64,000 nucleotides of DNA from an uncultured Bacteroidales bacterium (GTDB lineage Bacteria > Bacteroidota > Bacteroidia > Bacteroidales > CAYVNP01): NCBI GenBank assembly GCA_964452905.1, contig CAYVNP010000013.1, forward strand, positions 7,374 through 71,373, given 5' to 3'. Below are positions 29,806 to 63,202 of this stretch, in pieces. Positions within the stretch are counted from its first letter, which is position 1. Every line of letters starts with the position of its first letter. A program made the position numbers and the translations under genes. The notes beneath the pieces were generated by a model. It saw only the letters and a list, made by a program, of their open reading frames with translations, was not told where the DNA came from and searched no databases.

Positions 29806-32039
29806 AAACTTTTTGTTTTGATATTTTTAATTATGAAAAAAGAAATCGTTTATATTTTATTTTTGATTTTTCTGTTAAATAATGTTTTTTCACAAAAATC
29901 AGATTGTCCGACTATTTATCAAGGTCAAGATATTTGTATGGTTACAGTTGATCAAACTATTAATAAAGCCGTAGTTGTTTGGGAAAGAAAAAAAGAACTT
30001 GGAATCAAATCATTTATTATTTATAAAGTTATGCAATCATCAGGTGATTGGATTGTAGCAGATACTATACCATTTGAAAAAGAAAGTATCTGGACTGACT
30101 ATCAATCAAATCCTGACACTACATTTGAAATGTATAAAATTGCAGTTATTGATACTTGCGGTAATGTTTCAACTTTAAGTAGAATGCATTCATCTGTTTA
30201 TCTGGCATGTTATAGAAATATTAGTTTAACAAATTTAACTTGGACACCTCCAACTTTAACACCTACAACAGATTATATCAATTGGGAAATTTATGGAGGA
30301 AATACATTATCAAAAATGAAACTGATTGAAACTGGACCAATTATTAATGATGATTTTATAATTAATAAAGAATATTTAAGTTCTGATTCCCTTTCAAAAT
30401 TCCGTTATTATTCTATAGCTTATGTTAAAAAGGATACATGTTTTCCATCCATATTTAAAAAAGGTGTTCCTGTTTATTCGCGTTCTGTTTCCAATTTAGA
30501 AGATTTAGGAGCATCATTTTGCTTCAGTATTCCATATGCCGATCAAAAAATCTGCATGGTAACAATAGATACTGTTTTGAATAAGAATGTTGTAGTATGG
30601 GATAAGCTCAAAAATAAAGGAATAGAATTCTTTTATATTTATAAATACAAATTGAATGGAGATTCAATCAAAGATGTAATAGTTATTTCTTCACATATGG
30701 CAGGTGTCTGGTTAGATTCCAGTTCAACACCGGATAAAGAGTCTGCAGATTATCGGATAGGGATTATTGATACGTGCGGTAATGTATCCAAGCCCAGTCC
30801 ATATTCCTTCAGATCCGTTCATTTGTCAGTTGCAAAAGATAATAATGAAATTAACTTTCAATGGAATCACCCGATTGATGATCCCACATCAGAATTTACC
30901 CGTTGTTTAATCTATGGAGGAAATGATTCATTGTATTTAACTCTACTATCAACGATAACTGATTTTAGTACAAAAAAAACATTTTTAACTTCTGATCCTT
31001 CTTCACATTATCTGTATTATCGAATTATTTATGAAAAAATTTCTATCTGTAATCCAACATTGAAAAAAGGGAATAGTAATTATTATTATCAAATCAAATC
31101 CAATTTATTCAATACTGGAATGCTCGTAGGCATAGGAAAATATTCACTTCTGAATGAATCCATACTACTTTATCCAAACCCTGTTCGGGATTTGTTATCT
31201 GTGATGATTAAGAATCAATCAGAGAATACCGTAGAAATCGAATTAAAAGATGTACTTGGCAATACATTGTTAAAACAGGAATGGAATATTACATCTAACA
31301 AACAAACCTTCAATTTAAATCTGTCCGGTTTATCCAGAGGTTTTTATTTTATAAAACTGAATAATGGTAATACGTCCATAATTCAAAAGATTATATTAAA
31401 TTAAAAACTTTTTGTTTTGATATTTTTAATTATGAAAAAAGAAATCGTTTATATTTTATTTTTGATTTTTCTGTTAAATAATGTTTTTTCACAAAAATCA
31501 GATTGTCCGACTATTTATCAAGGTCAAGATATTTGTATGGTTACAGTTGATCAAACTATTAATAAAGCCGTAGTTGTTTGGGAAAGAAAAAAAGAACTTG
31601 GAATCAAATCATTTATTATTTATAAAGTTATGCAATCATCAGGTGATTGGATTGTAGCAGATACTATACCATTTGAAAAAGAAAGTATCTGGACTGACTA
31701 TCAATCAAATCCTGACACTACATTTGAAATGTATAAAATTGCAGTTATTGATACTTGCGGTAATGTTTCAACTTTAAGTAGAATGCATTCATCTGTTTAT
31801 CTGGCATGTTATAGAAATATTAGTTTAACAAATTTAACTTGGACACCTCCAACTTTAACACCTACAACAGATTATATCAATTGGGAAATTTATGGAGGAA
31901 ATACATTATCAAAAATGAAACTGATTGAAACTGGACCAATTATTAATGATGATTTTATAATTAATAAAGAATATTTAAGTTCTGATTCCCTTTCAAAATT
32001 CCGTTATTATTCTATAGCTTATGTTAAAAAGGATACATG
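28840..32039 (+). repeat. Perfect tandem direct duplication, 2 x 1,599 bp
   Basis: Copy 1 (28840-30438) matches copy 2 (30439-32037) at every line I compared (offset 1599). Mismatches occur only at 28839/30438 and 30441/32040. The microhomology AAGGATAC(T/A)TG is present at 28831, 30430 and 32029. Confidence 0.9.
29833..31404 (+). CDS. T9SS type-A-sorted modular surface protein, 2-module chimera (paralog 2)
   Basis: ATG at 29833 (track opens at the TTG at 29818). The first about 202 aa are identical to paralog 3 and the last about 321 aa identical to paralog 1. The junction falls at the DTC codons (30430-30440). Confidence 0.8.
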   Translation: MKKEIVYILFLIFLLNNVFSQKSDCPTIYQGQDICMVTVDQTINKAVVVWERKKELGIKSFIIYKVMQSSGDWIVADTIPFEKESIWTDYQSNPDTTFEMYKIAVIDTCGNVSTLSRMHSSVYLACYRNISLTNLTWTPPTLTPTTDYINWEIYGGNTLSKMKLIETGPIINDDFIINKEYLSSDSLSKFRYYSIAYVKKDTCFPSIFKKGVPVYSRSVSNLEDLGASFCFSIPYADQKICMVTIDTVLNKNVVVWDKLKNKGIEFFYIYKYKLNGDSIKDVIVISSHMAGVWLDSSSTPDKESADYRIGIIDTCGNVSKPSPYSFRSVHLSVAKDNNEINFQWNHPIDDPTSEFTRCLIYGGNDSLYLTLLSTITDFSTKKTFLTSDPSSHYLYYRIIYEKISICNPTLKKGNSNYYYQIKSNLFNTGMLVGIGKYSLLNESILLYPNPVRDLLSVMIKNQSENTVEIELKDVLGNTLLKQEWNITSNKQTFNLNLSGLSRGFYFIKLNNGNTSIIQKIILN

Positions 32040-33627
32040 CTATCCTACCCTAATTAGAAAAGGGATACCTATTTACGCTCGTTCTACTTCTAATTTAGCT
32101 GATTTAGGATTTCCCCCTAAATGTGTCAGCCAACCTTATCAGGGACAAGATATTTGTCTTGTTACTATAGATCAAACTATAAATAAAGCTGTTGTTGTCT
32201 GGGAACGAAAAAAAGATCTCGGTATCAAATCGTATATCATTTATAAGTTAAGCCATACCATTGCCAATAAATGGGATGTGGCTGCTGATATTCCTTTTGA
32301 AAACGAAAGTGTCTGGATTGACCAGAATTCAAATCCTGATTTATATCCCGAATCCTATAAAATCGCTGTTATGGATACATGCGGAAACATTTCAGATCCT
32401 AGCAGAACTCATCGTTCAATCTTTTTAGAAGTTATAAGAAATTATACTGGACTACCTTATACAAATTTTAATTGGAATCGTCCTACAATAACACCTGTAA
32501 ATGATTATTATAAACTTGAAATTTATGGTGGTGATACACTATCCAAATTGAAAATTATCAGTTCTATCACAATTCAAGTTGACGACACTACTACATTTAT
32601 TGCAAACTGGGATCCTGCTTCACAATTCCGGTATTATTATCTAGTTTATTTCCGTTCCGATACCTGTTATCCTTCAATCATTAAGAAAGCACCTCCATTT
32701 GCTTATTCTATTTCCAATCTCCCTGATTTAGGATTTCCACCCTGTCAAAGTAAAACATATCAAAATTTTAAAATATGTTTAGTTACAGTAGATTCGACAA
32801 CACATAAAACGACATTAGTTTGGGAACGTCCAAAAAATTTAGGAATAGAATCATTTCTGATCTTTAAGAAAAATACGAATGTATCACCTCCTGTTTGGGA
32901 TGTACTCGATACTATTCCGTTTACCCAAAATAGCATTTGGACTGATCCTACTTCAAATCCTGATAAGAAAACCGAATTCTATAAATTTGGCATTTTAGAT
33001 ACATGTGGAAATTTAACATATTCTAATGTTACACAAAATTCCATCTATTTATCTCTTACGAAGAATGCTGATAATATTAAACTTTCATGGAATAATCCTT
33101 CAAAAGACCCAACATTGGATTTTAATTATTTTAAAATATTTGGCGGGAATAATCCTTCCGGTTTAAATCTAATTTTTACAGGTTCTAATTTTGACACTTC
33201 AAAAACATTTTTTCAGTCTGATCCTTCATCACAATATAAATATTATATTGTGATTTTTTACAAAATTGACACCTGTCAATCAGCAATTAATAAGAAAGGT
33301 GATTTGATTAATCTTTCTCAAATAACTTCAAATCTTGCCTACTTTGATATTCCTATAGGGATTACATCAACTAATGAATTTTCATTTCACGTGTCTCCTA
33401 ATCCTGCTCACGACGAATTAACAATTTATTTTACTAATTCCGAAAAGAAAAAAACAATTATAGAAATAACTGATTTGTTGGGAAATATTATTACCCAACA
33501 AGAACTTGTAATACCTACTATTAATCATTCAATTCATATTAACTTATCATCCTTAACAAAAGGGATCTATTTTATTAGAGTTAAAAGTGATAATTATTTA
33601 AAGTTACAAAAATTGATTATCAATTAA
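31432..33627 (+). CDS. T9SS type-A-sorted modular surface protein, 3 modules (paralog 3)
   Basis: ATG at 31432, signal peptide and three modules with the same motif set. C-terminal VSPNPAHDELTIYF...GIYFIRV...LQKLIIN is a type-A CTD. Confidence 0.85.
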   Translation: MKKEIVYILFLIFLLNNVFSQKSDCPTIYQGQDICMVTVDQTINKAVVVWERKKELGIKSFIIYKVMQSSGDWIVADTIPFEKESIWTDYQSNPDTTFEMYKIAVIDTCGNVSTLSRMHSSVYLACYRNISLTNLTWTPPTLTPTTDYINWEIYGGNTLSKMKLIETGPIINDDFIINKEYLSSDSLSKFRYYSIAYVKKDTCYPTLIRKGIPIYARSTSNLADLGFPPKCVSQPYQGQDICLVTIDQTINKAVVVWERKKDLGIKSYIIYKLSHTIANKWDVAADIPFENESVWIDQNSNPDLYPESYKIAVMDTCGNISDPSRTHRSIFLEVIRNYTGLPYTNFNWNRPTITPVNDYYKLEIYGGDTLSKLKIISSITIQVDDTTTFIANWDPASQFRYYYLVYFRSDTCYPSIIKKAPPFAYSISNLPDLGFPPCQSKTYQNFKICLVTVDSTTHKTTLVWERPKNLGIESFLIFKKNTNVSPPVWDVLDTIPFTQNSIWTDPTSNPDKKTEFYKFGILDTCGNLTYSNVTQNSIYLSLTKNADNIKLSWNNPSKDPTLDFNYFKIFGGNNPSGLNLIFTGSNFDTSKTFFQSDPSSQYKYYIVIFYKIDTCQSAINKKGDLINLSQITSNLAYFDIPIGITSTNEFSFHVSPNPAHDELTIYFTNSEKKKTIIEITDLLGNIITQQELVIPTINHSIHINLSSLTKGIYFIRVKSDNYLKLQKLIIN

Positions 33628-34373: not shown

Positions 34374-35438
34374 ATGAACCGCCTCTATCTGATTGTTATT
34401 TTCATTCCATTTATTTTTTCATGTAAAAAAGATAAACCTCAGATTATTCAACATAAATATATTGACACAACCAATAAAGATTCAGTGACTTTAGATCCGA
34501 ATTTACTACATTATATTAATCCGGTATTAAATACCGATTTCCCCGATCCTGCCATACTTCTGGCACAAGATGGATACTATTATTCGTATGCTACCAATGG
34601 GAAATACGATGGTGTTTTTTGTACTATTCAAGTGGCTCGTTCAGCCGACATGGTCAATTGGGAGCATCTGGGTGATGCTATGCCAGTTCAACCCGACTGG
34701 GCAAGTGGTGATTTCTGGGCGCCCCATGTGATCTATGATGATTCATTAAAAAAATATTTCATGTATTTTTCCGGTGAGAATAATGGGAAATGCCTGGGTG
34801 TTGCAACTTCCAATTCACCCGAAGGACCCTTTGTTGATAAAGGGACTCCGCTTCTGTGTGGTGATGGTTTTGTGAATATTGATCCTATGGCTTTTGATGA
34901 TCCCCAAACCGGAAAGCATTATCTGTTCTGGGGTTCAGGATTCCAAGCCATCAAAGTACAAGAACTGACAAGGGATAGAATGCATTTTGTTTCGGGCAGT
35001 CAACCGAAAGGACTTATATATCCAAATGGTGGAGAACCCTATAAAATTTTAGTTGAAGGTAACTGGGTAATCTATCGGAATGGAAAATATTATATGTTTT
35101 ATTCAGGTGATAATTGTTGCGGTACAAAAGCACATTACGCTGTCATGGTTGCCAGAGCCGACAGCCCAACCGGACCTTTTACCGAATTTAAAAGCCCAAC
35201 TGAAAATTCAAGTGTTATCCTACGTGACAGTTATAACTGGCGTGGTCCGGGACATAATTCAATCATTACAGATAAAGCCGGCAACGACTGGATCGTTTAT
35301 CATGCTATGCGTCCTGAAGATATGGCACGCACGTTCCGTGTGATGCTCATTGACAGAATATTATGGGTTGAAGGCTGGCCAAGGGTGTACAATGATCAGC
35401 CATCAAATGTTTTATGCAATGCCCCGGTAGTAAACTGA
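34374..35438 (+). CDS. Glycoside hydrolase family 43 lipoprotein (arabinanase/xylosidase-like)
   Basis: Lipobox IFSCKK. DFPDPAILLAQDGYYYSYATN and FWAPHVIYD, followed by VEGNWVIYRNGKYYMFYSG, are the five-bladed-propeller GH43 motifs. Confidence 0.88.
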   Translation: MNRLYLIVIFIPFIFSCKKDKPQIIQHKYIDTTNKDSVTLDPNLLHYINPVLNTDFPDPAILLAQDGYYYSYATNGKYDGVFCTIQVARSADMVNWEHLGDAMPVQPDWASGDFWAPHVIYDDSLKKYFMYFSGENNGKCLGVATSNSPEGPFVDKGTPLLCGDGFVNIDPMAFDDPQTGKHYLFWGSGFQAIKVQELTRDRMHFVSGSQPKGLIYPNGGEPYKILVEGNWVIYRNGKYYMFYSGDNCCGTKAHYAVMVARADSPTGPFTEFKSPTENSSVILRDSYNWRGPGHNSIITDKAGNDWIVYHAMRPEDMARTFRVMLIDRILWVEGWPRVYNDQPSNVLCNAPVVN

Positions 35439-43022: not shown

Positions 43023-46000
43023 ATGAAAAAAATTGTATCTTTTCAAATACTGATTTTATTATTATCCCTAAAAATAACAGCTCAAAATATTGGTATCAAT
43101 ACTGATGGAAGTACACCTGATGCTGGTGTAATGCTCGACATTAAGCCATCAAGCAGCGGTTCGGTTGATCCTTTGCTACTCCGAATGAGAGGCACTACAG
43201 ATGGTGCACAGTATATTGCTGTTTTATTCGGTAATAATAATTTTCAGTATTATCATACACTTAAATCAAGACACAGCAGTACAGCAAACAACAGCAATGC
43301 CCTTGATTTTTATTTATCAACCACAACATCCGGAACGCAAAAACAGGTTCTTTCTTTAACTGGAGCTGGTAATGTTGGAATTGGTACTATCGCCCCATCT
43401 GCATCTGCAATGCTTGAAATGTCATCAACATCAGGTGGTTTATTGATTCCGCGTATGACTGCTGCCCAGAAAGTTGCAATTGGAACTCCAGCCACCGGAT
43501 TATTAATTTATCAAACAGATGCTCCTGTCGGATTCTGGTATTATAATGGAACATCCTGGTTGCCTTTGTTAGGAGCAATCAGCAGCAGTGATGGTACAGC
43601 CGGTTGGTCCTTAACGGGAAATACAGGCACAACAGCAGGAACAAACTATCTCGGAACTTCCGATGCAAAAGATTTTGTTATAAAAACCAATGGCACAGAA
43701 AGAGTACGTGTAAAATCAGGAGGTAATGTTGGTATTGGGACAAATGCACCGGCACAAAAACTCGAGATTACAGGGAATACGAGGATTTCAGGAGGTAATG
43801 GTCTAGAAATCACTGAAACTGGAAATCCATTTTTACGAATTGCCTTGGACCAAAGTACGGCTGGTTATAGTTGTATCGTTAATAACTGGGGCAATAGCTC
43901 AAATCCTGGTGTTGTTGTGGGTTCAACCCGAACAGACGGAAATGCTTTTCAAGTGGGGACAGGAATTACACTTGACGCAAATTCACTCCCAAATTCCAAT
44001 GGAACTCAACGATTTTTAGTTCAAGGAAATGGTGATATCGGTATGACAGCCACTGACCTTTCTCATAGTTTACAAGGCGGAACAGTACCCTATAAAATTA
44101 CACGTCTGGTTCGCATTGCTACTGATAATGATAATGAAGATGCACTTTTTCAAATTACCAGTTCCGGGGGGTCCTCTCATATTAATCTCTTTTCTGGAAA
44201 CAGCACTGATAATCCAGCTTTTATCTGGCAACAAAACAAAAGTATTCGTTTCGGCGTATGGGATTCATGGAAAACAGCAACATTCACAAGTATGATATTA
44301 ATCAATGGAACTAACGGTTATGTTGGTATAAATAATGATGTACCTTCAGCAAGGTTAAGCATTGCTAACACTGGAGTAACGGAATTAACCGGTACTTCTC
44401 ATTCATCCACATTTCGAACAATTGCAGGTACACTTGGAAATACTGTTGGGGATCTTCTTCAGTTAGCTTCAATTGGCTATAAAACAAATCAACCAAATAG
44501 CTGTGCTCTTGGTTTTTGGTCTTACAGACATTCAACTACATCCCCTTTTCCTCATGGATGGGATGGAACATCTATAGGACTTACAATGGATGTTGACAAC
44601 TCAGCAAGAGCTGGAAATGGACTTTGGTTAAAACATAATGGCTATATTGGTATTGGCACACCGAATCCACAAAATAAATTTGAAGTCAGTAAAGACGGTA
44701 CTACCGAAGGATTTTCAGTTTCAACAGGTGGGGTTGTCAAAATAAACAATGTGTACTCATTGCCAACTGCCGTTGGAATATCAGGGCAAGCGCTTATTTC
44801 GGCTGGTGCAACATCTAACTGGGGGACACTGGGTGTAGCTGGAGGTGGAACCGGAGCCAACTCGTTAACCGGCATGATTAAAGGAAATGGAATAGGTGCA
44901 TTTACCGGTATTACAGGTACACAATGGGGAATAACCTACTGGTCAAATGCAAATACGATTGCTTCTACTGCTGCTGGTACTGCAGGGCAGGTGCTCATTT
45001 CAAATGGAGCTGCAGCGCCTGCATGGGCAAACATGAACTCCTACAATTGGAGTTTGACGGGTAATTCTGGTACCACACCCGGAACCAATTATTTAGGCAC
45101 TTCCGATGCAAAAGATTTAATCCTGTCAACGGCTGCCACCGAACGATTCCGTATTACCAGTGATGGGACTAAATTTGGTTTTAATACCGGAGGCACTCCC
45201 ACCTATAATTTTCATGTTAAACCTGCTTCAGGCAATACGATTGATGCCATGTTCACACCAACAGAATGGAATTCAACCGATGATTATTCTAAAATCATGT
45301 TAGGTTTTACTGACCATTATATTAAAGCAGCTCAAAATGCAGGAATGGATATCTATACCAATGATGATCTGAGGTTTTATACCGGAACCGGTTCGGGGGG
45401 AAGCAATGTGGGTAAACAACGGATGAAGATTGAGGAAACCGCCAATAATACGACCTATGTTGATCTGACCACGGACCCTTCTGATGCCACAGCATGGAAC
45501 AGTAGCGGAGATTTCGTGCGTCTGCGTTTGGGTGATGACAATCATTACATTCATGGAGAATATGGAGTTGGAATGACATTTAATGATGTAAATAAATTCA
45601 ATTTTACAGGCGGGAATGTCGGTATTAACCAAACTGCTCCCGAATGGAAATTGCAGATGACATCATCCGGAAATAATACACCGGATGCATTACAGGCAAC
45701 GAATGCCAATAAATCCCGATTCCTGACCGTTTTTTCCGGAAGTGAAAATGCAAACGATGATTCACCTGCTTTGGTTTGGGGTCAACGAGGAGGAACTGCC
45801 GGATTGCAGGGAAATATATTAAGACTTGGTACCTGGAACGCTTCCAGTGGATCAAGCTGGCAAGAACATTACAGGTTTTATGGGGACGGTAATACAACCG
45901 CAAATGCAACTCGGGTTGATATAAAACAAGGATATGACAGGACCACAGCAACAGATAACTATTATACTCTTGATTTACGAAAAGGTGATAATACAGATGT

Positions 46001-46481
46001 GACAGGCACCTGTGTCATTAATGATAATTTAAATGTTTATGGAACGATATGGGCTAATGGCGCTACCATTACTAACGGCTTTACTACGTGGTCTGACGGA
46101 CGATTTAAAACAAATATCTATCCGATTAATTTCCCTTCAGAAAAAATCAAGAAACTCAATGGGGTTTATTATCTTTGGCGAACCGATACATCCACTGCCG
46201 GAATTAATTTCCCGGTTGGCAAACAAATGGGGTTGATTGCTCAAGATGTTGAAAAAGTTTTTCCGGAAGCAGTAATTGAATTCAAAGGGTTAAAAACAAT
46301 TGATTACGGCAAATTAATTTCACCTTTGATTGAAGCTTTTAAAGAACAACAAATATTATTAGAACAATTGATACATGATAATCAACTTCTTGAATCAGAT
46401 AATAAAAATTTAAAAGAATATCTTGACAAACTGGATACAAGACTTAAAAATATTGAAGCATTATCTAAAACAGACAAATAG
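43023..46481 (+). CDS. Secreted tail-fibre-like protein with a C-terminal intramolecular chaperone (endosialidase chaperone / Peptidase_S74) domain
   Basis: Signal peptide. Five repeats of the G(N/Y)VGIGT..P...L.(V/I/M) collar motif. An internal duplication (WSLTGN[TS]GTT.GTNYLGTSDAKD at about aa 195 and about aa 680). C-terminus TW-SDGRFKTNIYPI...LNGVYYLWR...GLIAQDVEKVFPEAV...IDYGKLISPLIEAFKEQQ followed by a coiled coil. The predicted autocleavage Ser is codon 1024 (nt 46092). Confidence 0.85.
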   Translation: MKKIVSFQILILLLSLKITAQNIGINTDGSTPDAGVMLDIKPSSSGSVDPLLLRMRGTTDGAQYIAVLFGNNNFQYYHTLKSRHSSTANNSNALDFYLSTTTSGTQKQVLSLTGAGNVGIGTIAPSASAMLEMSSTSGGLLIPRMTAAQKVAIGTPATGLLIYQTDAPVGFWYYNGTSWLPLLGAISSSDGTAGWSLTGNTGTTAGTNYLGTSDAKDFVIKTNGTERVRVKSGGNVGIGTNAPAQKLEITGNTRISGGNGLEITETGNPFLRIALDQSTAGYSCIVNNWGNSSNPGVVVGSTRTDGNAFQVGTGITLDANSLPNSNGTQRFLVQGNGDIGMTATDLSHSLQGGTVPYKITRLVRIATDNDNEDALFQITSSGGSSHINLFSGNSTDNPAFIWQQNKSIRFGVWDSWKTATFTSMILINGTNGYVGINNDVPSARLSIANTGVTELTGTSHSSTFRTIAGTLGNTVGDLLQLASIGYKTNQPNSCALGFWSYRHSTTSPFPHGWDGTSIGLTMDVDNSARAGNGLWLKHNGYIGIGTPNPQNKFEVSKDGTTEGFSVSTGGVVKINNVYSLPTAVGISGQALISAGATSNWGTLGVAGGGTGANSLTGMIKGNGIGAFTGITGTQWGITYWSNANTIASTAAGTAGQVLISNGAAAPAWANMNSYNWSLTGNSGTTPGTNYLGTSDAKDLILSTAATERFRITSDGTKFGFNTGGTPTYNFHVKPASGNTIDAMFTPTEWNSTDDYSKIMLGFTDHYIKAAQNAGMDIYTNDDLRFYTGTGSGGSNVGKQRMKIEETANNTTYVDLTTDPSDATAWNSSGDFVRLRLGDDNHYIHGEYGVGMTFNDVNKFNFTGGNVGINQTAPEWKLQMTSSGNNTPDALQATNANKSRFLTVFSGSENANDDSPALVWGQRGGTAGLQGNILRLGTWNASSGSSWQEHYRFYGDGNTTANATRVDIKQGYDRTTATDNYYTLDLRKGDNTDVTGTCVINDNLNVYGTIWANGATITNGFTTWSDGRFKTNIYPINFPSEKIKKLNGVYYLWRTDTSTAGINFPVGKQMGLIAQDVEKVFPEAVIEFKGLKTIDYGKLISPLIEAFKEQQILLEQLIHDNQLLESDNKNLKEYLDKLDTRLKNIEALSKTDK

Positions 46482-46510: not shown

Positions 46511-47797
46511 ATGACTGTAAAAAAATTCATCCCGTTGATTTTTCTGACTATTTATTTATTAATTAGTTCGGATGTCTGTGCTCAGTCCCGATTAGTAATG
46601 AATAATGACCCGTATGTTGTTTATGCCAATGGCAGTTCATCCAAACCGGTTTATCTGGTGTTGAATAACTCAAATGCAAATTCCATCACACTTTCAGGTA
46701 CAGGAGGAAACATTATTTCGGAAAATGAATATCATATATTGAAATGGAATATAGGTACTCAGACAGGGAACTATACAGTACCTTTTACTAAAACATCTGG
46801 CAATAAAATTCCATATACATTGAATATTACAAATGCAGGATCCGGTTCCGGCAATATTAAATTTTCAACCTATACTTCAAATTCAGCAAATACACCATTT
46901 CCTTCTGATGTAACTTTTCTGAATGACATTTCAACAAATTCAGATAATTCCCTAAAAGTAATTGATCGCTTCTGGATCATTGATGCGAACGGTTATACAA
47001 CCAAACCAACATCAACTATGCTCTTTACGTATTTGCATTCGGAATATGCAGCACCTAATACAATCACAGAATCAAATTTACGCGCACAACGTTTTAATTC
47101 AACACTACCTAAATGGGGAGATTATCTGCCCCAGGGAACCATAGATATCGGTGCAAACACTGTCTCATCTGTACCTGCTGCACCTGCAGATTTTTTCCGA
47201 TCCTGGACGTTGGTTGATAATTCAAGTCCCTTACCTATTGAATTACTTTATTTTAATGGTCTTTGCTCTGATAATCAATTGAAATTATTCTGGGCAACAC
47301 AAACTGAAACAAATAATGATTTTTTCACCATCGAAGAGTCCTCGAACGGTTCTGACTTTACAGAGATGAGACGAATCAAAGGCGCCGGAAACAGTAATAA
47401 AATCAGGTATTATCAGGTAAACATTCCCGGTGATGCAAATGAACAATTTTATTTCCGTTTAAAGCAAACCGATTTCAACGGAAAATATCATTATTATTCC
47501 ATAATACATCCCGAAAATAACTGTGTAAAAAAGACAACACGTTTTTTTTATTCAGTTTCTCCCAATCCTGCCACTTCAGATAATTTAAAATTGACCTTAT
47601 TCAGTCCGATACGACAGAATATTTCGGTATCTTTTTATTCATTAATCGGTCAATTGGTGTATGAAATGATATTACCCGTTGGAAATGACCAACCCATTAG
47701 TCATATTTTTCAATTGCAGCATCTCACTCCTGCAATGTATCTGATGGTACTATCAACTTCATCAAACAATTATGTTGAGAAAATTATTGTTAAATAA
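46511..47797 (+). CDS. T9SS type-A-sorted hypothetical surface protein (partner of the tail-fibre-like gene)
   Basis: Signal peptide, then the PIELLYFNG......LKLFWATQTETNNDFFTIEES.NG.DF domain common in Bacteroidota surface proteins. C-terminal SVSPNPATSDNLKLTLF...AMYLMVL...VEKIIVK is a CTD. It starts 29 nt after the upstream stop. Confidence 0.75.
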   Translation: MTVKKFIPLIFLTIYLLISSDVCAQSRLVMNNDPYVVYANGSSSKPVYLVLNNSNANSITLSGTGGNIISENEYHILKWNIGTQTGNYTVPFTKTSGNKIPYTLNITNAGSGSGNIKFSTYTSNSANTPFPSDVTFLNDISTNSDNSLKVIDRFWIIDANGYTTKPTSTMLFTYLHSEYAAPNTITESNLRAQRFNSTLPKWGDYLPQGTIDIGANTVSSVPAAPADFFRSWTLVDNSSPLPIELLYFNGLCSDNQLKLFWATQTETNNDFFTIEESSNGSDFTEMRRIKGAGNSNKIRYYQVNIPGDANEQFYFRLKQTDFNGKYHYYSIIHPENNCVKKTTRFFYSVSPNPATSDNLKLTLFSPIRQNISVSFYSLIGQLVYEMILPVGNDQPISHIFQLQHLTPAMYLMVLSTSSNNYVEKIIVK

Positions 47798-56099: not shown

Positions 56100-58280
56100 A
56101 TGAAATTTATTCACACCCTGTTATATCTATCAATTTTTAATATAAGTTTTTCACAAACTGTTTCAAAATTTATAGTTGTTGATCAGTTTGGATATATGCC
56201 TTACATGAAAAAAGTGGCTGTAATGCGTTCACCTCAGACCGGTTATGATTCATTGGAAACATTTACACCAGGATCAAATTATGCTGTTGTTAATTCAGCA
56301 AATGGTATGCAGGTTTTCACTGCGTCTCCTGCTCTTTTTAATTCCGGGCAAACCGATCCGTCATCCGGTGATAAAGTATGGTGGTTTGATTTTTCTTCTG
56401 TTACTACACCCGGGTCATATTTTATTTTAGATATTACCAATAATTTAAAATCATATAATTTTATTATTTCGGATACGGTTTATAAAAATGTATTAAAAGC
56501 AGCAGTCCGAATGTTTTTTTATCAGCGATTCGGTTGCGCAAAAGAAGCGAAGTATGCCGGTGTCGGTTGGGCTGATGGCGCCAGTCATATTGGACCGTTG
56601 CAAGACAAGAATTGCAGAGTATATAATGATAAAAACAATCCGGCAACAGAACATGATCTCAGCGGTGGCTGGTATGATGCAGGCGATCTGAATAAATATA
56701 CAGCATGGACCACAAGCTATGTTATTGGCTTACTGCGTTCATATCAAGAATTTCCAAATGTATTCACTGATGATAATAATATCCCTGAATCGGGCAATGG
56801 AATACCTGATCTTTTGGATGAAATTAAATGGGGTATGGACTGGCTGTTGCGCATGCAATTACTTGATGGATCATGTTTAAGTGTTGTGGGTGGTGCTCCC
56901 AAAAGTCCACCTTCGCTTGCAACCGGTCAAAGCTTATATGGCTTACCCAGCACCAATGCAACGATGAGTTGTGCTGCTGCATTTGCTCTTGGCGCTAAAA
57001 TTTACAGGTCAACAGGGAATTCTGCATTGCAAATATATGCAGATACTTTACAAGCAAGAGCATTTAAAGCATGGAACTGGGCAATAGCTAATCCTTCTAT
57101 TCTGTTTCATAGCAACAATGCTGCTAATGGCAGCAGTGGCATATTACCCGGCGATCAGGAAACGGATTCATTAGGTCGTTTAGTATGCAAAATTTCTGCT
57201 GCAGTTTATTTGTTTGATCTAACAGGAGATGTAAAATACAGAAGTATTTTTGATGCCAATTTCAAAGGACTTCCATTATTTACCTGGTACTATTTTGTAG
57301 ATCAATACCGGGCTTCACAACAAGATATTTTACTTTATTATACATCAATACCTAATGCGACAAATACCAATTGTCTGATGATCAAAAACTATTTAACAAC
57401 AGGATTTAAAAAAACCGGTGATTATATTTCAATGATTGATACAGATCCGTATCGTGCATTTATCAAGGATTACAACTGGGGTTCGAATGCATATAAAAGT
57501 ACTTATTCATTTACTTTTTACAATATTCAAAAGTACAATCTTGATCCTGTCAATAATCAAAAATATTTGGATGCAGCTACGGATTATGTTCATTATATTC
57601 ATGGTATCAATCCGTTCAATATGGTTTATTTGACCAATATGAGCAGCTATGGAGCAGAGTCCAGCGCCACCACGATGTATCATTCATGGTTTTGCGATGG
57701 TAGCGCTAAATGGGATCAGGTTGGCAAATCACTCTATGGTCCTGCTCCGGGTTATATTACAGGTGGTCCAAATCAATATTATAAATGGGCTGATTGTTGT
57801 CCTTCATCCTGTGGAAGCATAGCAAATAATAAATTATGCACCTCTGAATCCTTACTTCCTCCTTTGAACCAGCCACAACAAAAATCGTATAAAGATTTTA
57901 ATACCAGCTGGCCATTGGATTCATGGGAGATCACAGAACCAAGTTGCGGGTATCAAACAGATTATATCCGCATGTTGTCCATGGTGATCGGCTCACAATC
58001 CTTGATCACAAAGGTTGCAGAAAATTCCAAATTTAATAGGGATTATGATTTTATATTGTTTCCTAATCCGGCTTCAGATCAACTGACTATTCAGGAAAGT
58101 TGGACTCAGGACAGAGAAATAAAAACTGTTACCTTAACGAATACTCTTGGTCAAATTGTTTTTACAAAACAAATACATTTATCCAATAATTCTTTTACCC
58201 TTGATATGTCTGATATTCCGGAAGGAGTATATTTCGTTACAATAAAAAACAGCACCAAAAAGATTTTGATAATTAAATAA
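56100..58280 (+). CDS. Glycoside hydrolase family 9 endoglucanase with an N-terminal Ig-like (CelD_N) domain and a T9SS type-A CTD
   Basis: IVVDQFGYMPYMKKVAV (Ig-like N-domain), DLSGGWYDAGDLNKY (GH9 catalytic Asp pair), DYVHYIHGINPFNMVYLT, ITGGPNQYY, WEITEPSCGYQ. C-terminal LFPNPASDQLTIQ...GVYFVTIKN...KILIIK. Confidence 0.9.
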   Translation: MKFIHTLLYLSIFNISFSQTVSKFIVVDQFGYMPYMKKVAVMRSPQTGYDSLETFTPGSNYAVVNSANGMQVFTASPALFNSGQTDPSSGDKVWWFDFSSVTTPGSYFILDITNNLKSYNFIISDTVYKNVLKAAVRMFFYQRFGCAKEAKYAGVGWADGASHIGPLQDKNCRVYNDKNNPATEHDLSGGWYDAGDLNKYTAWTTSYVIGLLRSYQEFPNVFTDDNNIPESGNGIPDLLDEIKWGMDWLLRMQLLDGSCLSVVGGAPKSPPSLATGQSLYGLPSTNATMSCAAAFALGAKIYRSTGNSALQIYADTLQARAFKAWNWAIANPSILFHSNNAANGSSGILPGDQETDSLGRLVCKISAAVYLFDLTGDVKYRSIFDANFKGLPLFTWYYFVDQYRASQQDILLYYTSIPNATNTNCLMIKNYLTTGFKKTGDYISMIDTDPYRAFIKDYNWGSNAYKSTYSFTFYNIQKYNLDPVNNQKYLDAATDYVHYIHGINPFNMVYLTNMSSYGAESSATTMYHSWFCDGSAKWDQVGKSLYGPAPGYITGGPNQYYKWADCCPSSCGSIANNKLCTSESLLPPLNQPQQKSYKDFNTSWPLDSWEITEPSCGYQTDYIRMLSMVIGSQSLITKVAENSKFNRDYDFILFPNPASDQLTIQESWTQDREIKTVTLTNTLGQIVFTKQIHLSNNSFTLDMSDIPEGVYFVTIKNSTKKILIIK

Positions 58281-58296
58281 AAATTGGTGATTCAGA

Positions 58297-60183
58297 CTAA
58301 TCCAATAAAGTCAGTTTTTTTGTATATGTTTTCTTCGTTTTACTATTTTCCAGAGAGCAGATATAAACACCTGAACGTAATTTATTTCCATTTTGATCAT
58401 CACCATACCATTGGATTTGATTGAAATTATTCACTCTAACTATCTTTACTAACTTACCGTTTAAATTAAAAACTCTGAAAACTACATCATCGGGACCATT
58501 ATTAAATTTAATGGTAGTACATATATTAAATGGATTAGGATATGCAATAAAAGTAAAATCAACATCATTTTTATTCAATCCAACAGGTGTAAATGAATTA
58601 ACATAAAGTAATTCGATGCCATCTCCTGTACCTAAATTCCTTGTATATTTTCTATCAGATGCATTATTCCAGTGTTCAAAGACACCCTGACTTGCAATTG
58701 GAGTACCATCTCCTTCAGGATCATAACTGATACCGGAAGGCCAGTAGGCAGAGCTGGCACACTGTTTTAAATAATCAGCAATTTCCGCCCTTAATGTAAC
58801 AGGATATTCACGCATGGATGTATCCACCAGATTTTCCTGAAAAAGAACATCAAAACAAACAGATTCAATAGCAACCGGATCCTGACTAATTAAAATAGAA
58901 TTCGGATAGTCGGTATTGAACGGTTCTGTTTGAAATTTATGTATGAACCCTTCCCATCCATCACCACCCCAGATGCCATCCACAAGATAGATCAGTGTTT
59001 TACCTCCAGTTTCTTTATGCCCCATGTAATCGACCAGATGACGATATTTTCCGGTACCCGGACTATTTATAAATAAATAATCATGCAACATTTTAGCACT
59101 TTGGCTTTCAGGTTTTCCGCCCAAAGGTAAATACGAACCCTGATGGTTTTTGGCAGCAATCGTAATTCCTCCATCCGCATGTGTTTTTAAACATGGCATA
59201 TTGATAAAATATTTGGCATCCAAATAATATTGAGGTAAAGTTGATTTTGCTTTTCCATTACTGAACTTAAGTACTTCCAATGAGCTGGGAACTGTCTTCG
59301 TTACACCTAATGAACCCGTTCCATCAACATAATTCACCGTAGGATAAATGGATGCACATATATCCTTGTATTCCTGACGAAACTGACGATACGGATCACC
59401 AAGGATAATATCTTTTGGATTTACACCGACATGCTCTATCAACTGTTTTAATAAAGCCAGAACCAGATGAGGAGTCGCATTCATCCTTTCTTCGGATGTA
59501 CTCACCTGATTCGTTAAATTTATTTTTACTACAATCTTTTCACCTTTTTTATACCCAACTTTTCCAAAACCGTGTGCACTATTAAAATAGCTAAAAATAT
59601 AATTCCAGGCAGTATCAATATTTTCTGTATTTGCATACTGCATGATTGCATATGAAAGGGTAAGATCAACTTGAGTCTGGTTAACATTTGTATTGCTGTA
59701 CCAGAAATTTTTACTGCCCGCAACCGGATTATACTTTTCATTCGTCATATCGGTGTTATGTGCCCAGACTACACGACCCGGATAAAGACCTAAAGCTTCA
59801 CCAACTGGTATGTTGGAAGCAACAGGAAATGAAATTCCTTTAATAGAGTGTTTCGTAGCAAAAGAAAATTTTGAATCATTGACTATAAATATCGCTCCAC
59901 AAATAACAAACAAAATCAGAAATGCAAAAGCAAAACGATAATGTGACCTCGCGAAATTTTTCTTAAACGTCCTGAATGCTGCAATACTGCCAAACAAACT
60001 GATTAAATATATGACCATGCCCGACATAAGCGGAGATGCAACTCTCATACAAGGATATGTTGCTCTGCTCGGTTTAGGGATGACCCTGAAAAGAAACCAT
60101 ACTGTTGATGCAATACCAATTAAGAAAAAATAAAATTTTGAATTTTTATAATTTTTAATGAACCTCAGTAATTTTAACAACAT
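58297..60183 (-). CDS. DUF362 domain-containing protein with N-terminal TM helices and a T9SS type-A CTD
   Basis: PKPSRATYPCMRVASP N-terminal motif between hydrophobic helices, DUF362 core NMPCLKTHADGGITIAAKNHQG, C-terminal AYPNPFNICTTIKF...GVYICSLEN...KKLTLLD. Confidence 0.75.
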   Translation of the reverse strand: MLLKLLRFIKNYKNSKFYFFLIGIASTVWFLFRVIPKPSRATYPCMRVASPLMSGMVIYLISLFGSIAAFRTFKKNFARSHYRFAFAFLILFVICGAIFIVNDSKFSFATKHSIKGISFPVASNIPVGEALGLYPGRVVWAHNTDMTNEKYNPVAGSKNFWYSNTNVNQTQVDLTLSYAIMQYANTENIDTAWNYIFSYFNSAHGFGKVGYKKGEKIVVKINLTNQVSTSEERMNATPHLVLALLKQLIEHVGVNPKDIILGDPYRQFRQEYKDICASIYPTVNYVDGTGSLGVTKTVPSSLEVLKFSNGKAKSTLPQYYLDAKYFINMPCLKTHADGGITIAAKNHQGSYLPLGGKPESQSAKMLHDYLFINSPGTGKYRHLVDYMGHKETGGKTLIYLVDGIWGGDGWEGFIHKFQTEPFNTDYPNSILISQDPVAIESVCFDVLFQENLVDTSMREYPVTLRAEIADYLKQCASSAYWPSGISYDPEGDGTPIASQGVFEHWNNASDRKYTRNLGTGDGIELLYVNSFTPVGLNKNDVDFTFIAYPNPFNICTTIKFNNGPDDVVFRVFNLNGKLVKIVRVNNFNQIQWYGDDQNGNKLRSGVYICSLENSKTKKTYTKKLTLLD

Positions 60184-61327: not shown

Positions 61328-63202
61328 ATGAGATTACATATTATATTTCCTATTTTCATTTTATTTTTCTCGGTTCATCTTTTACAAGCACAAACCCGCA
61401 CTTTAGTTTTCGTTAATAATATGTCCAAAGATATCTGGGTTGGAACGCAAGGGGCTCCCAATGCTGCTGTTCCTGCGAACGGAGGATTTGTTTTGCCTGC
61501 CAGAGGAGAATATACGCTTCAGCTACCCAATGGCTCTTCTTCCTTACGATTCTGGGGAAGAACAGGATGCAATCCACAAACAGGTAAATGTGAAACGGGT
61601 GATTGCACATCCGGTAAAGTTGAATGCAATGGGATGGGAGGTGTACCTCCGATAACACTTGTTGAAATGACATTGGGTGATCCAAAAGCGCAGAATGCTG
61701 ATTTCTATGACATCAGCTTGGTGGATGGATATAACCTGCCTATCCGGATTATTCCTGTTGTTGGTACCTTTACCCCACCGACTTCTGGAAATCCATTTGA
61801 TTGCGGGATTGCCGGCTGTACGTCTGATCTGAATAAAACATGTCCACTGGAACTACAGGTAAATAACAAAAACGGTGATACCATTGCATGTAAAAGCGGA
61901 TGTATGCGATTCAACACTGATCGGTTTTGTTGTCGCAATGCGTTTGGCACTCCGGATAAATGTCCTCCAACCGATTACTCCATGCTCTTCAAAGAAGCCT
62001 GTCCTGATGCTTACAGCTATGCCTATGATGATCTTTCAAGCACCTATGTTTGCTTCAATGCAACCTACAGAATTGAATTCGGTATTCTGGAAAGTACCGG
62101 AAAGCCAACTGCAAAAATCATTGCCTCTAAAGTGACAGGTACAGCTCCTTTAACCGTTAATTTTGATGCTTCGGGTTCATTTGATCCAAATGGTAAACCA
62201 TTAACCTATTTCTGGGATTTTCACGATAATTCCAATGGTACAGGCAAAAACATACAGCATACCTATACTCAAACCGGAAGTCATATTGCTTCACTTACTG
62301 TGAATAATGGTGTATCCAGCGATGTTGCATTTGTTAAAATAAATGTTGGTGCAACAAATCTGCTTCCATCCATTAACTGGAATTTACCTTTGGATGGAAG
62401 TGTTTATTCTCAAGGCAGTTCAATTACTTTTTCAGTTACCGCTGAAGATGAAAGTGGAATTTCATTGGTTGAATTCTTTGCGGATGGTCTTAAGATTGGC
62501 GATGATTCCACTTTTCCTTATTCATTTGTATGGTTGAGCCCGACAAATGGAAAACACATTTTAACTGCCCGTGCAACTGATAATTTAAATCACTCAGCAT
62601 CAACTGCTGAAATTACCGTTAACATTGGACAAAGTGAAGGGGGCGGTTGCACCTTAAATGATTTAACCGGAGATTTCAAAACCATTGTTTCGGGTGCTTT
62701 AAGCAATCCAACGATTACTTTTATTCCATTACGAACCGGTGTTGGTGAAACTACCTGTATACTATATTATTCATTAACCGGAGTGAGTCCATTTGGTGGA
62801 CACTTGGCAACACAAGGGCTCCCGTTTCAGATTAATGCATCGCTTGGGAATACTGTTTATTTCTATTATACTTATTCTGTTCCTGAAGGAGGTGAACGGA
62901 ATAATTCAGCTAACAAATTTCAGGTCAAGATTGGCGATTGCACATCAACTGGTATCAATTCAAATAAAAATAAGGATATAACAATAGATGTAAAACAAAC
63001 GGATAATAGTCTTTTTTTGGATTTCAAACAAAATCAAATTAATTTGCTTGAGATTTATAATTTAGTTGGACAAAAAATAATTAGCTCTGATCATATCGTC
63101 AACTCATTCCTGAACATTGATATTTCTATTTTAATTTCAGGATTTTATTACATCAAATTTTATGGTAGTACAAACCCGGCAATTCCATTTTATAAAAAAT
63201 AA
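61328..63202 (+). CDS. Thaumatin-like (PR-5 family) domain protein fused to PKD, an Ig-like domain, an unknown domain and a T9SS type-A CTD
   Basis: After the signal peptide comes TLVFVNN..KDIWVG...LRFWGRTGC. GKCETGDCTSGKVEC is a near-exact thaumatin signature. Then FYDISLVDGYNLP, TDRFCCRNAFGTPDKCPPTDYSMLFKEACPDAYSYAYDD..STYVC (14 Cys in the family pattern). PKD segment is GTAPLTVNFDASGSFDPNGKPLTYFWDF. C-terminus is LEIYNLVGQKI...GFYYIKF. Confidence 0.85.
   Translation: MRLHIIFPIFILFFSVHLLQAQTRTLVFVNNMSKDIWVGTQGAPNAAVPANGGFVLPARGEYTLQLPNGSSSLRFWGRTGCNPQTGKCETGDCTSGKVECNGMGGVPPITLVEMTLGDPKAQNADFYDISLVDGYNLPIRIIPVVGTFTPPTSGNPFDCGIAGCTSDLNKTCPLELQVNNKNGDTIACKSGCMRFNTDRFCCRNAFGTPDKCPPTDYSMLFKEACPDAYSYAYDDLSSTYVCFNATYRIEFGILESTGKPTAKIIASKVTGTAPLTVNFDASGSFDPNGKPLTYFWDFHDNSNGTGKNIQHTYTQTGSHIASLTVNNGVSSDVAFVKINVGATNLLPSINWNLPLDGSVYSQGSSITFSVTAEDESGISLVEFFADGLKIGDDSTFPYSFVWLSPTNGKHILTARATDNLNHSASTAEITVNIGQSEGGGCTLNDLTGDFKTIVSGALSNPTITFIPLRTGVGETTCILYYSLTGVSPFGGHLATQGLPFQINASLGNTVYFYYTYSVPEGGERNNSANKFQVKIGDCTSTGINSNKNKDITIDVKQTDNSLFLDFKQNQINLLEIYNLVGQKIISSDHIVNSFLNIDISILISGFYYIKFYGSTNPAIPFYKK

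Follow-up and report, generated by a model that had tools for sequence, protein, structure and literature searches.

The window analyzed here, a 64,000-nucleotide stretch of contig CAYVNP010000013.1 from an uncultured Bacteroidales bacterium, contains an open reading frame (ORF) whose product joins a thaumatin domain to PKD and Ig-like domains, an unclassified module (here called domain X), and a probable C-terminal sorting domain (CTD) of the type IX secretion system (T9SS) (61328 to 63202; Table 1). The product is probably a modular extracellular protein of the glycoside hydrolase 152 (GH152) type that is exported by the T9SS and acts on β-1,3-glucans. Two observations are new: the thaumatin/GH152 module lies in a T9SS β-glucanase scaffold, an arrangement unique among the 130 domain X proteins and approximately 200 thaumatin proteins examined, and domain X is recognized as a module outside existing classifications that goes with β-1,3-glucan enzymes. 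GH152 is among the least characterized β-glucanase families, with one CAZy-characterized member and a second added, neither of them bacterial (PMC11800479). A soluble bacterial member in a scaffold like that of carbohydrate-active enzymes (CAZymes) would offer a handy way to ask whether the cleft of thaumatin is a genuine glycosidase.

Thaumatin domain, acidic cleft, and cysteines

Residues 30 to 251 matched Pfam family PF00314 with an E value of 1.2e-69 (234.6 bits versus 27.4), covering profile positions 1 to 207 of 209. This match to the thaumatin family is far beyond chance and agrees with the domain assigned to the ORF by an earlier interpretation made from the DNA letters alone (the sequence-only reading). 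The top matches among PDB sequences were apple Mal d 2 (3zs3; phmmer, 4.4e-51) and cherry Pru av 2 (2ahn). An AlphaFold2 (AF2) model built from an alignment of the domain with 25 homologues (alignment A1; pLDDT 87.6, pTM 0.86) was compared to known structures with Foldseek and superimposed on 3zs3 at TM 0.86/0.89, the range over 3zs3 and 2ahn being 0.85 to 0.89, with more than 25 structures of thaumatin-like proteins (TLPs) found at E < 1e-13. The GH64 β-1,3-glucanases 5h4e and 3gd0 were remote structural matches; GH64 enzymes and TLPs have been described as one structural superfamily with a common fold (PMC13251364). TLPs constitute CAZy family GH152, for which β-glucanase activity has been shown in members from Lentinula edodes and the whitefly B. 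tabaci (PMC11800479), and GH152 has been counted with the β-1,3-glucanase families alongside GH16, GH64, and GH81 (PMC10637969).

The five residues of the acidic cleft, known as the REDDD motif (meaning as in PMC11800479), were all kept. Alignment with HMMER to NP24-I (2i0w) placed them at R74, E113, D128, D133, and D235, and the corresponding columns were invariant in alignment A1. By our count, the NP24 equivalents are R44, E84, D97, D102, and D185.

Fourteen cysteines were counted within residues 22 to 253 (positions 81, 88, 93, 100, 159, 164, 172, 188, 192, 201, 202, 212, 225, and 242), which would imply seven disulfides. The sequence-only reading had arrived at the same count and had noted that the first cysteine, that of the N-x-C motif, was missing; alignment with the 25 homologues showed it replaced in NNMS (M32) and showed in addition that the last cysteine, that of F-C-P, was replaced in F-G-I (G252). 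The first and last cysteines of thaumatin pair with each other and tie the termini together. Because both are replaced, one whole disulfide is gone, and the domain has 14 cysteines rather than the 16 cysteines and eight disulfides of long-type TLPs. The remaining seven disulfides were positionally intact. Among the family members, 36 of 64 from prokaryotes and 16 of 66 from eukaryotes (the latter all insect) had jointly lost the terminal pair; the loss is therefore a variant inside the thaumatin family and gives no ground for exclusion. Residues C88...C100 fit the partial family signature that had been noted, C-x-T-[GA]-D-C-x(1,2)-[GQ]-x(2,3)-C. At the position of the G that opens the complete PROSITE thaumatin pattern, the protein presumably has Q84, owing to a 3-residue deletion.

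In relation to the plant long-type TLPs of the PR-5 group (Mal d 2 and Pru av 2), the domain had the same fold (TM 0.86 to 0.89), approximately 40 to 50% identity, the REDDD cleft, and seven of eight disulfides by position. It differed in being bacterial, in being without the N/C-terminal disulfide, in a C81-C88 loop 3 residues shorter, and in approximately 8 additional residues ahead of C159; it also has PKD, Big_7, domain X, and a T9SS CTD as fusion partners, where the plant proteins consist of a single domain. TLXI, a thaumatin-like inhibitor of xylanases, was considered as a model and rejected, as it is of the short type and matches distantly (E = 2e-6, TM 0.46), while the window protein is of the long type with the full REDDD set.

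Domain X and its catalytic partners

The segment that the sequence-only reading could not place (GGC...KIGDC) was found to measure approximately 100 aa (residues 439 to 538) rather than the 130 aa proposed, and to hold three more cysteines (C441, C477, and C538). Its unplaced status stood: it had no match in Pfam even at E ≤ 10, no NCBIfam model matched the region in a scan of the whole protein, and no relative was found among PDB sequences. Comparison with PDB folds yielded no significant neighbor (best E = 0.015, TM of approximately 0.5, generic Ig/FN3). When 1.84 billion representative proteins were searched exhaustively with HMMER, 128 relatives were recovered at E ≤ 1e-3, 97 of them at E ≤ 1e-10, whereas a word-indexed search recovered only 2. 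The family signature was NPT[IL]TF.P...GVG...ILYY...PG[YH]...YFYYTYS.PEGGE[RN]N...VG.C, which in the window protein reads NPTITF.P...GVG...ILYY...YFYYTYSVPEGGERN...G.C, and one pair of cysteines was near-invariant across the family (C12 and C109 of the family alignment A2, equal to C441 and C538 of the window protein). The AF2 model of the domain was an eight-strand, all-β structure (pLDDT 87.4, core above 90). Between one and three copies were present per protein, mostly ending 75 to 90 residues before the C terminus with the T9SS CTD right after, and copies were also found far from the C terminus, up to 526 residues away.

Pfam scans of all 129 other domain X proteins showed a T9SS CTD in 91, with Big_7 as the commonest non-CTD partner (47/129), followed by the carbohydrate-binding module (CBM) family CBM6 (34/129). 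The catalytic partners were GH16 (20/129), GH64 (16/129), and GH81 (12/129); these three families were the sole recurrent ones, and no other glycoside hydrolase family reached two members in either of the top-25 partner lists. The link to β-1,3-glucan that the sequence-only reading had drawn from the thaumatin family thereby gains independent backing. Both named domain X proteins came from metagenome-assembled genomes (MAGs) of marine Cytophagales, one of them titled "beta-1,3-glucanase family protein [Reichenbachiella sp.]." A thaumatin domain was found in 1 of the 130 proteins, that of the window, and domain X in none of the other thaumatin proteins examined.

The domain X β-1,3-glucanases compared most closely (P0247, GH64-Big_2-CBM6-X-CTD; P0251, GH16-...-CBM6-X-CTD; and P0242, GH81 plus GH64 with three X copies, from Reichenbachiella) resemble the window protein in their Ig-like spacers, in a domain X that is 40 to 53% identical, and in the T9SS CTD that follows it; unlike the window protein, they have a catalytic GH16, GH64, or GH81 where it has thaumatin/GH152. 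The thaumatin domain thus takes the place that GH16, GH64, or GH81 has in a Bacteroidota secretion scaffold that is otherwise common to all of them. The enzymes BH0236 of Bacillus halodurans (GH81-CBM6-CBM56) and PbBgl64A of Paenibacillus (CBM56-GH64) likewise combine a β-1,3-glucan-active module with binding modules (PMC13251364) but come from Gram-positive hosts without a T9SS and carry classified CBMs, and domain X matches CBM56 weakly. An assignment of domain X to CBM56 (PF22184) was rejected: besides the lack of a Pfam match, an hhalign comparison of alignment A2 with the CBM56 alignment gave only 37% probability over 68 columns. CBM56 occurs beside domain X as a separate domain in 8 of the 129 proteins.

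Domain X is a candidate new CBM family, with a ligand predicted from co-occurrence. The fuller proposal, that it is an unclassified β-1,3-glucan-binding family specific to T9SS cargo and that the window protein is a product of shuffling in which thaumatin/GH152 replaced a GH16, GH64, or GH81 module, is offered tentatively, with a likelihood somewhat short of even. On that proposal, the window protein would count as a first candidate for a bacterial GH152 with catalytic activity. It is doubtful that domain X is instead a mere structural spacer ahead of the CTD of T9SS cargo, with a glucanase link that stems from the shared ancestry of a few enzyme lineages. Such a spacer would suit the usual position of domain X directly before the CTD and a fold that matches generic Ig/FN3 domains only. 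The occurrence of one to three tandem copies, at up to 526 residues from the C terminus, argues the other way, as do the three unrelated catalytic folds for one possible substrate class (GH16, GH64, and GH81) that accompany it along with thaumatin. No other recurrent enzyme class was found with domain X among thousands of T9SS cargo types, and the weak profile similarity to CBM56 also speaks against a spacer.

In the L084 contig (6099-12463), a GH16-3xBig_2-CBM6-X-CTD gene and a GH64-Big_2-CBM6-X-CTD gene are adjacent and flanked by a Y_Y_Y/SpoIIE-type regulator; the arrangement resembles a β-1,3-glucan module of two enzymes from a T9SS bacterium.

Putative export signals and overall architecture

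The features of the ORF are listed in Table 1. The putative signal peptide consists of a basic residue and a hydrophobic core, with L-Q-A preceding Gln22 (read from the sequence, with no predictor). The same junction, alanine followed by QRT, occurs in two Chitinophaga homologues, and an N-terminal Gln in the mature protein is consistent with the "Q-rule" of Bacteroidetes. The PKD and Ig-like domains of the sequence-only reading were both recovered by Pfam, the former as PKD_4 (65.6 bits against a cutoff of 27, E = 4.1e-18) and PKD (E = 1.8e-14) and the latter as Big_7 (58 bits against a cutoff of 24.1, E = 1.5e-15), in a region that includes SITFSVTAEDESGISLVEFFADG.

A type A CTD had also been proposed. 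The extreme C terminus resembles one, with the motifs LEIYNLVGQKI and GFYYIKF...K present and the usual PNP motif absent, and in the relatives of domain X a CTD lies directly downstream of that domain. The scores were 22.5 bits against a cutoff of 23 for TIGR04183 (residues 562 to 614, E = 8.1e-5) and 22.9 bits against 27 for Pfam Por_Secre_tail (PF18962; isolated tail, E = 1.1e-4), so the assignment is kept as a probable, divergent CTD. At least eight proteins with T9SS CTDs, including GH9 and DUF362 proteins, are encoded within the 64 kb, a number that would fit heavy use of the T9SS by the host; at least seven window proteins other than the thaumatin protein have CTDs above threshold, of type A and CHU_C. 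No genes for the T9SS machinery turned up among the window ORFs scanned.

Table 1. Predicted features of the thaumatin-domain gene, in window coordinates
Feature	Positions	Strand	Residues and details	Basis
Whole gene	61328..63202	+	624 aa; predicted modular secreted protein; stop codon 63200-63202	ORF list, Cys numbering
Putative Sec signal peptide	61328..61390	+	aa 1-21 (MRLHIIFPIFILFFSVHLLQA then QTR)	Read by eye
Thaumatin/GH152-type domain	61391..62086	+	aa 22-253	Pfam, PDB phmmer, AF2, Foldseek
REDDD cleft span	61547..62032	+	R74-D235	HMMER alignment to NP24-I (2i0w), other TLP structures
REDDD codons	R74 61547-61549; E113 61664-61666; D128 61709-61711; D133 61724-61726; D235 62030-62032	+		
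PKD domain	62102..62344	+	aa 259-339	Pfam; ColH PKD domains matched in PDB
Big_7 bacterial Ig-like domain	62366..62569	+	aa 347-414	Pfam PF17957
Domain X	62642..62953	+	aa ~439-542; unclassified β-sandwich, ~100 aa	Relatives, alignment A2, AF2
Probable T9SS type A C-terminal sorting domain	62969..63199	+	aa 548-624; divergent	TIGR04183, Por_Secre_tail

Proposed role

As read from the sequence, the protein would be exported through the Sec pathway by means of its signal peptide, with cleavage after A21, and would form disulfides in the periplasm, namely seven within thaumatin and, probably, another within domain X. The divergent CTD would then be recognized by the T9SS, leading to release or to surface anchoring. 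Homology and co-occurrence suggest that the REDDD cleft binds β-1,3-glucan and probably cleaves it, the substrates in view being laminarin and the wall glucan of fungi, oomycetes, or algae. PKD and Big_7 would act as spacers, and domain X most likely aids polysaccharide binding and substrate targeting. The purpose would be nutritional rather than antagonistic: a CAZyme-like nutritional role is more parsimonious than an antifungal weapon because the scaffold is common to ordinary glucanases, although the two roles are not mutually exclusive.

Several points weigh against this reading. The GH16 family is broad, and the 20 GH16 partners of domain X are not all necessarily β-1,3-specific. In structure, domain X itself comes close to generic Ig/FN3 domains, one of them the Ig-like domain of PPAD, a T9SS cargo protein, and could be a spacer. 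The CTD falls just under both curated cutoffs. The thaumatin gene is not in a polysaccharide utilization (SusC/SusD) locus, and its Chitinophaga analogue is also outside any dedicated β-glucan locus. A literature search found no functional or biochemical description of any bacterial TLP, and many plant TLPs bind glucan yet hydrolyze it poorly or not at all.

The main functional rival, an unlikely one, is a noncatalytic lectin or adhesin in which binding of β-glucan is all that the thaumatin domain and domain X do, as a T9SS-anchored tether to glucan-rich particles, hyphae, or algal detritus. Several TLPs are reported, by Trudel et al. in 1998, to bind β-1,3-glucan without notable hydrolysis. 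Cargo with type A CTDs is often surface attached, and the PKD and Ig domains give the protein a stalk-like architecture. The thaumatin-like domains of fungal SUN proteins are glucan binders as well (PMC13251364). Hydrolysis is nonetheless favored by conservation of the full REDDD set, with the presumed catalytic acids included, by the true hydrolases that hold the position of thaumatin in relatives, and by the fact that both characterized GH152 members are active glucanases (PMC11800479).

The sequence-only reading had suggested an antifungal or anti-oomycete effector. An antagonistic, osmotin/PR-5-like weapon that damages target walls or membranes, not for sugar, is possible but quite improbable, and it is less parsimonious than a role in glucan degradation or binding, as elsewhere the scaffold carries ordinary β-1,3-glucanases. 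It draws on the plant PR-5-type TLPs that are the nearest PDB matches, on retention of the acidic cleft associated with antifungal TLPs, on the many bacterial carriers from soil groups that are predatory or associated with fungi (Polyangia, Chitinophaga, Ktedonobacteria, and Actinomycetota), and on the solitary position of the gene outside any uptake locus. Against it stand the scaffold and domain X shared with GH16, GH64, and GH81 glucanases and a neighborhood made up of a GH9 cellulase and other secreted proteins, with no toxin or immunity genes.

Thaumatin domains across prokaryotes

A pattern-plus-tblastn scan of one genome per species (185,579 species, the source genome not included) confirmed at least 162 loci with a thaumatin relative in at least eight major lineages, among them Myxococcota, Chloroflexota, Actinomycetota, Acidobacteriota, Fibrobacterota, Spirochaetales, and Bacteroidota. 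The lineage breakdown rests on 80 of the 162 loci, which span Polyangia and other Myxococcota, Ktedonobacteria, Chloroflexia, several Actinomycetota, Acidobacteriaceae, Fibrobacterota, Spirochaetales, and Syntrophorhabdus; Bacteroidota were represented by two Chitinophaga isolates and one Saprospiraceae MAG. The NCBI name for the bacterial relatives is "thaumatin family protein," and a crystal structure exists for one, the TLP of Amycolatopsis rifamycinica (7p22). Bacterial thaumatin domains are infrequent but not exotic, and the claim of the sequence-only reading that bacterial members are rare and uncharacterized is overstated. The Amycolatopsis protein is like the window protein in being bacterial and in its thaumatin fold (TM 0.76 to 0.80) but is only approximately 26 to 27% identical (E = 1.9e-11); the window domain lies far closer to the type found in plants, animals, and myxobacteria.

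The architectures of these proteins included thaumatin with one or two CBM56 (Ktedonobacteria), with a ricin-B lectin (a Myxococcales MAG), and with fn3 and CBM6 (a Pseudonocardiaceae MAG). In a Spirochaetales MAG, thaumatin was joined to F5/8-C in one protein and to three CBM6 and GH16 in another. The Chitinophaga proteins consisted of a signal peptide, thaumatin, a βγ-crystallin-like region, CBM6, and a T9SS CTD. In BH0236 and PbBgl64A, CBM6 and CBM56 are known to bind β-1,3-glucan (PMC13251364). From the fusion of thaumatin to CBM6 and CBM56, it follows that bacteria use the thaumatin domain as they use catalytic CAZyme modules. The scattered occurrence of thaumatin domains in many bacterial phyla, usually in combination with glycan-binding modules, bears on the origins of PR-5 in plants, fungi, and animals.

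The proteins of Chitinophaga sp. CF118 and YR573 (L009 and L014) share with the window protein their host phylum (Bacteroidota), the signal peptide junction (alanine followed by Gln), a thaumatin domain starting at residue 22, absence of the terminal cysteine pair, and a carbohydrate-binding-type module ahead of the T9SS CTD. They differ in that the thaumatin domain is 48 to 49% identical, the middle of the protein is the βγ-crystallin-like region and CBM6, and no robust grouping with the window protein was found.

With thaumatin, three CBM6, and GH16 in one polypeptide, the Spirochaetales MAG protein at L058 17-2650 (JAFGKU010000056.1) pairs two modules of glucanase type and lends itself to telling a catalytic from an auxiliary thaumatin module. 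TLPs from Fibrobacterota/Chitinivibrionales MAGs (L045-L047, L050, and L052) aligned to the window protein from approximately residue 88 on, with 50 to 55% identity, and have a conserved GWPHKNAAGQT N terminus; the N-terminal lobe seems replaced or strongly diverged.

Origin of the thaumatin domain

The sequence-only reading had also proposed an interkingdom transfer with subsequent domestication. The best matches in Plasmodiophora, mosses, angiosperms, a mollusc, Myxococcota, and Ktedonobacteria were all 52 to 57% identical, and the level was approximately 50 to 57% across plants, mosses, Plasmodiophora, arthropods, and Myxococcota. The word-indexed search, an exact-sequence contig look-up, and the genome scan returned nothing, bacterial or eukaryotic, that exceeded 57% identity; the first two also missed the thaumatin protein of the window itself although it is present in the 50%-representative library (P0241), and nonreturn there does not equal absence.

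A neighbor-joining (NJ) phylogeny of 179 thaumatin domains (Kimura distances, 200 bootstraps) recovered Actinomycetota (support of 0.98), Ktedonobacteria (0.97), Acidobacteriaceae (1.00), insects (0.93), and plant groups (0.8 to 1.0). The window domain had no supported partner in this tree, eukaryotic or bacterial: its best sister group reached 33 to 36%, and deeper nodes reached approximately 0%. Over the 200 bootstraps, an angiosperm clade was the sister 73 times, metagenome sequences (mostly P0002) 38 times, Plasmodiophora 27 times, and Spirochaetales or Chitinophaga approximately 43 times. Hidden Markov models (HMMs) for Myxococcota, arthropods, plants, mosses, and other eukaryotes were nondiscriminating, with 280 to 307 bits each.

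Rare characters were also compared. The short C81-C88 loop together with NNMS recurred in P0002 (a metagenomic protein with thaumatin and ricin lectin) and in L036 of Chloroflexia, with NNLS in L041, and the short loop was also present in beetle TLPs. Nearly all sampled plant TLPs had a C81-C88 loop of 9 residues and a short loop ahead of C159, and the terminal cysteine pair was absent from none of them. As read from the sequences, these characters point away from plants. The GC content at third codon positions (GC3) of the thaumatin segment was 0.358, compared to 0.22 to 0.27 in the rest of the gene, and was not anomalous as a test of foreign origin, since 11% of equal-sized windows in other genes, including that for aspartyl-tRNA synthetase (AspRS), reached this value.

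No evidence for a recent interkingdom transfer was found. The recent capture of a thaumatin module from a plant or another eukaryote and its grafting onto a bacterial secretion scaffold is very improbable. The small angiosperm clade that was the most frequent bootstrap sister, the plant TLPs as best PDB matches, the somewhat raised GC3, and the lack of a bacterial relative above 57% identity are what speak for it. They are countered by the equal lack of a eukaryotic sequence above 57% identity and thus of a close donor, by the low support for the plant sister, by the similar scores of the clade HMMs, by the ordinary GC3, and by three characters (cysteine-pair loss, a short C81-C88 loop, and a long loop ahead of C159) that are absent or almost absent in plants and present in P0002, L036/L041, and insects. 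An old transfer, in either direction, may have occurred, and the patchy distribution over phyla suggests lateral spread among bacteria.

Both the loss of the terminal cysteine pair and a CN/CD---xxxxHC loop were observed in TLPs of beetles and some other insects (such as P0054, P0072, P0097, and P0109) and in a bacterial subset (such as L036, L041, and P0002). These shared characters may reflect convergence or transfer between bacteria and arthropods; bacterial TLPs without the terminal disulfide and with the short C81-C88 loop may have a transfer history in common with the insect proteins.

Host and genomic neighborhood

The window is bacterial chromosome, encoding DnaE, AspRS, NIF3, and an RND efflux system. 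AspRS was 76 to 78% identical to Bacteroidales and Bacteroidota MAG proteins, with the nearest relatives at 87%, and these identities place the host in Bacteroidota. The thaumatin gene lies alone between a gene for a FISUMP-domain protein and one for a rubredoxin-like membrane protein. Scans for promoters, terminators, and a Bacteroidetes-type -33/-7 pattern were all at chance level.

Two genes upstream of it is a GH9 cellulase gene (56100-58280, +) with a CelD_N Ig-like domain and a T9SS CTD, and a GH43 gene (34374-35438, +) lies 26 kb away. The host seems to secrete several enzymes for plant or algal polysaccharides without adjacent SusC/D genes. The DUF362 protein (58297-60183, -; 628 aa) has an N-terminal membrane segment, DUF362, and a clear T9SS CTD (33.5 bits), and a T9SS-exported DUF362 protein looks unusual. 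A metagenome scan with this gene returned one homologue of equal length and 52% identity (L081 3824-5713, a JGI metagenome), and its neighbors were unrelated to those in the window.

Other putative T9SS cargo was found further from the thaumatin gene. Three consecutive genes at 27604-33627 (+) encode proteins of 733, 528, and 736 aa, each ending in a strong T9SS CTD (56 to 58 bits) and with no other Pfam domain at E ≤ 1e-5; they may be a paralogous cargo family. A 1152-aa protein (43023-46481, +) with Peptidase_S74, the intramolecular chaperone of endosialidases and tail spikes, near its C terminus resembles a phage tail fiber in a chromosomal setting, and the next gene (46511-47797, +) encodes a 428-aa protein with a T9SS CTD. 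At 1328-5407 (-) lies a gene for a 1359-aa, gliding-adhesin-like cargo protein with DUF7948, PKD, an SprB repeat, and a CHU_C (type B) T9SS signal; with this signal present beside type A CTDs, the host appears to use both CTD types.

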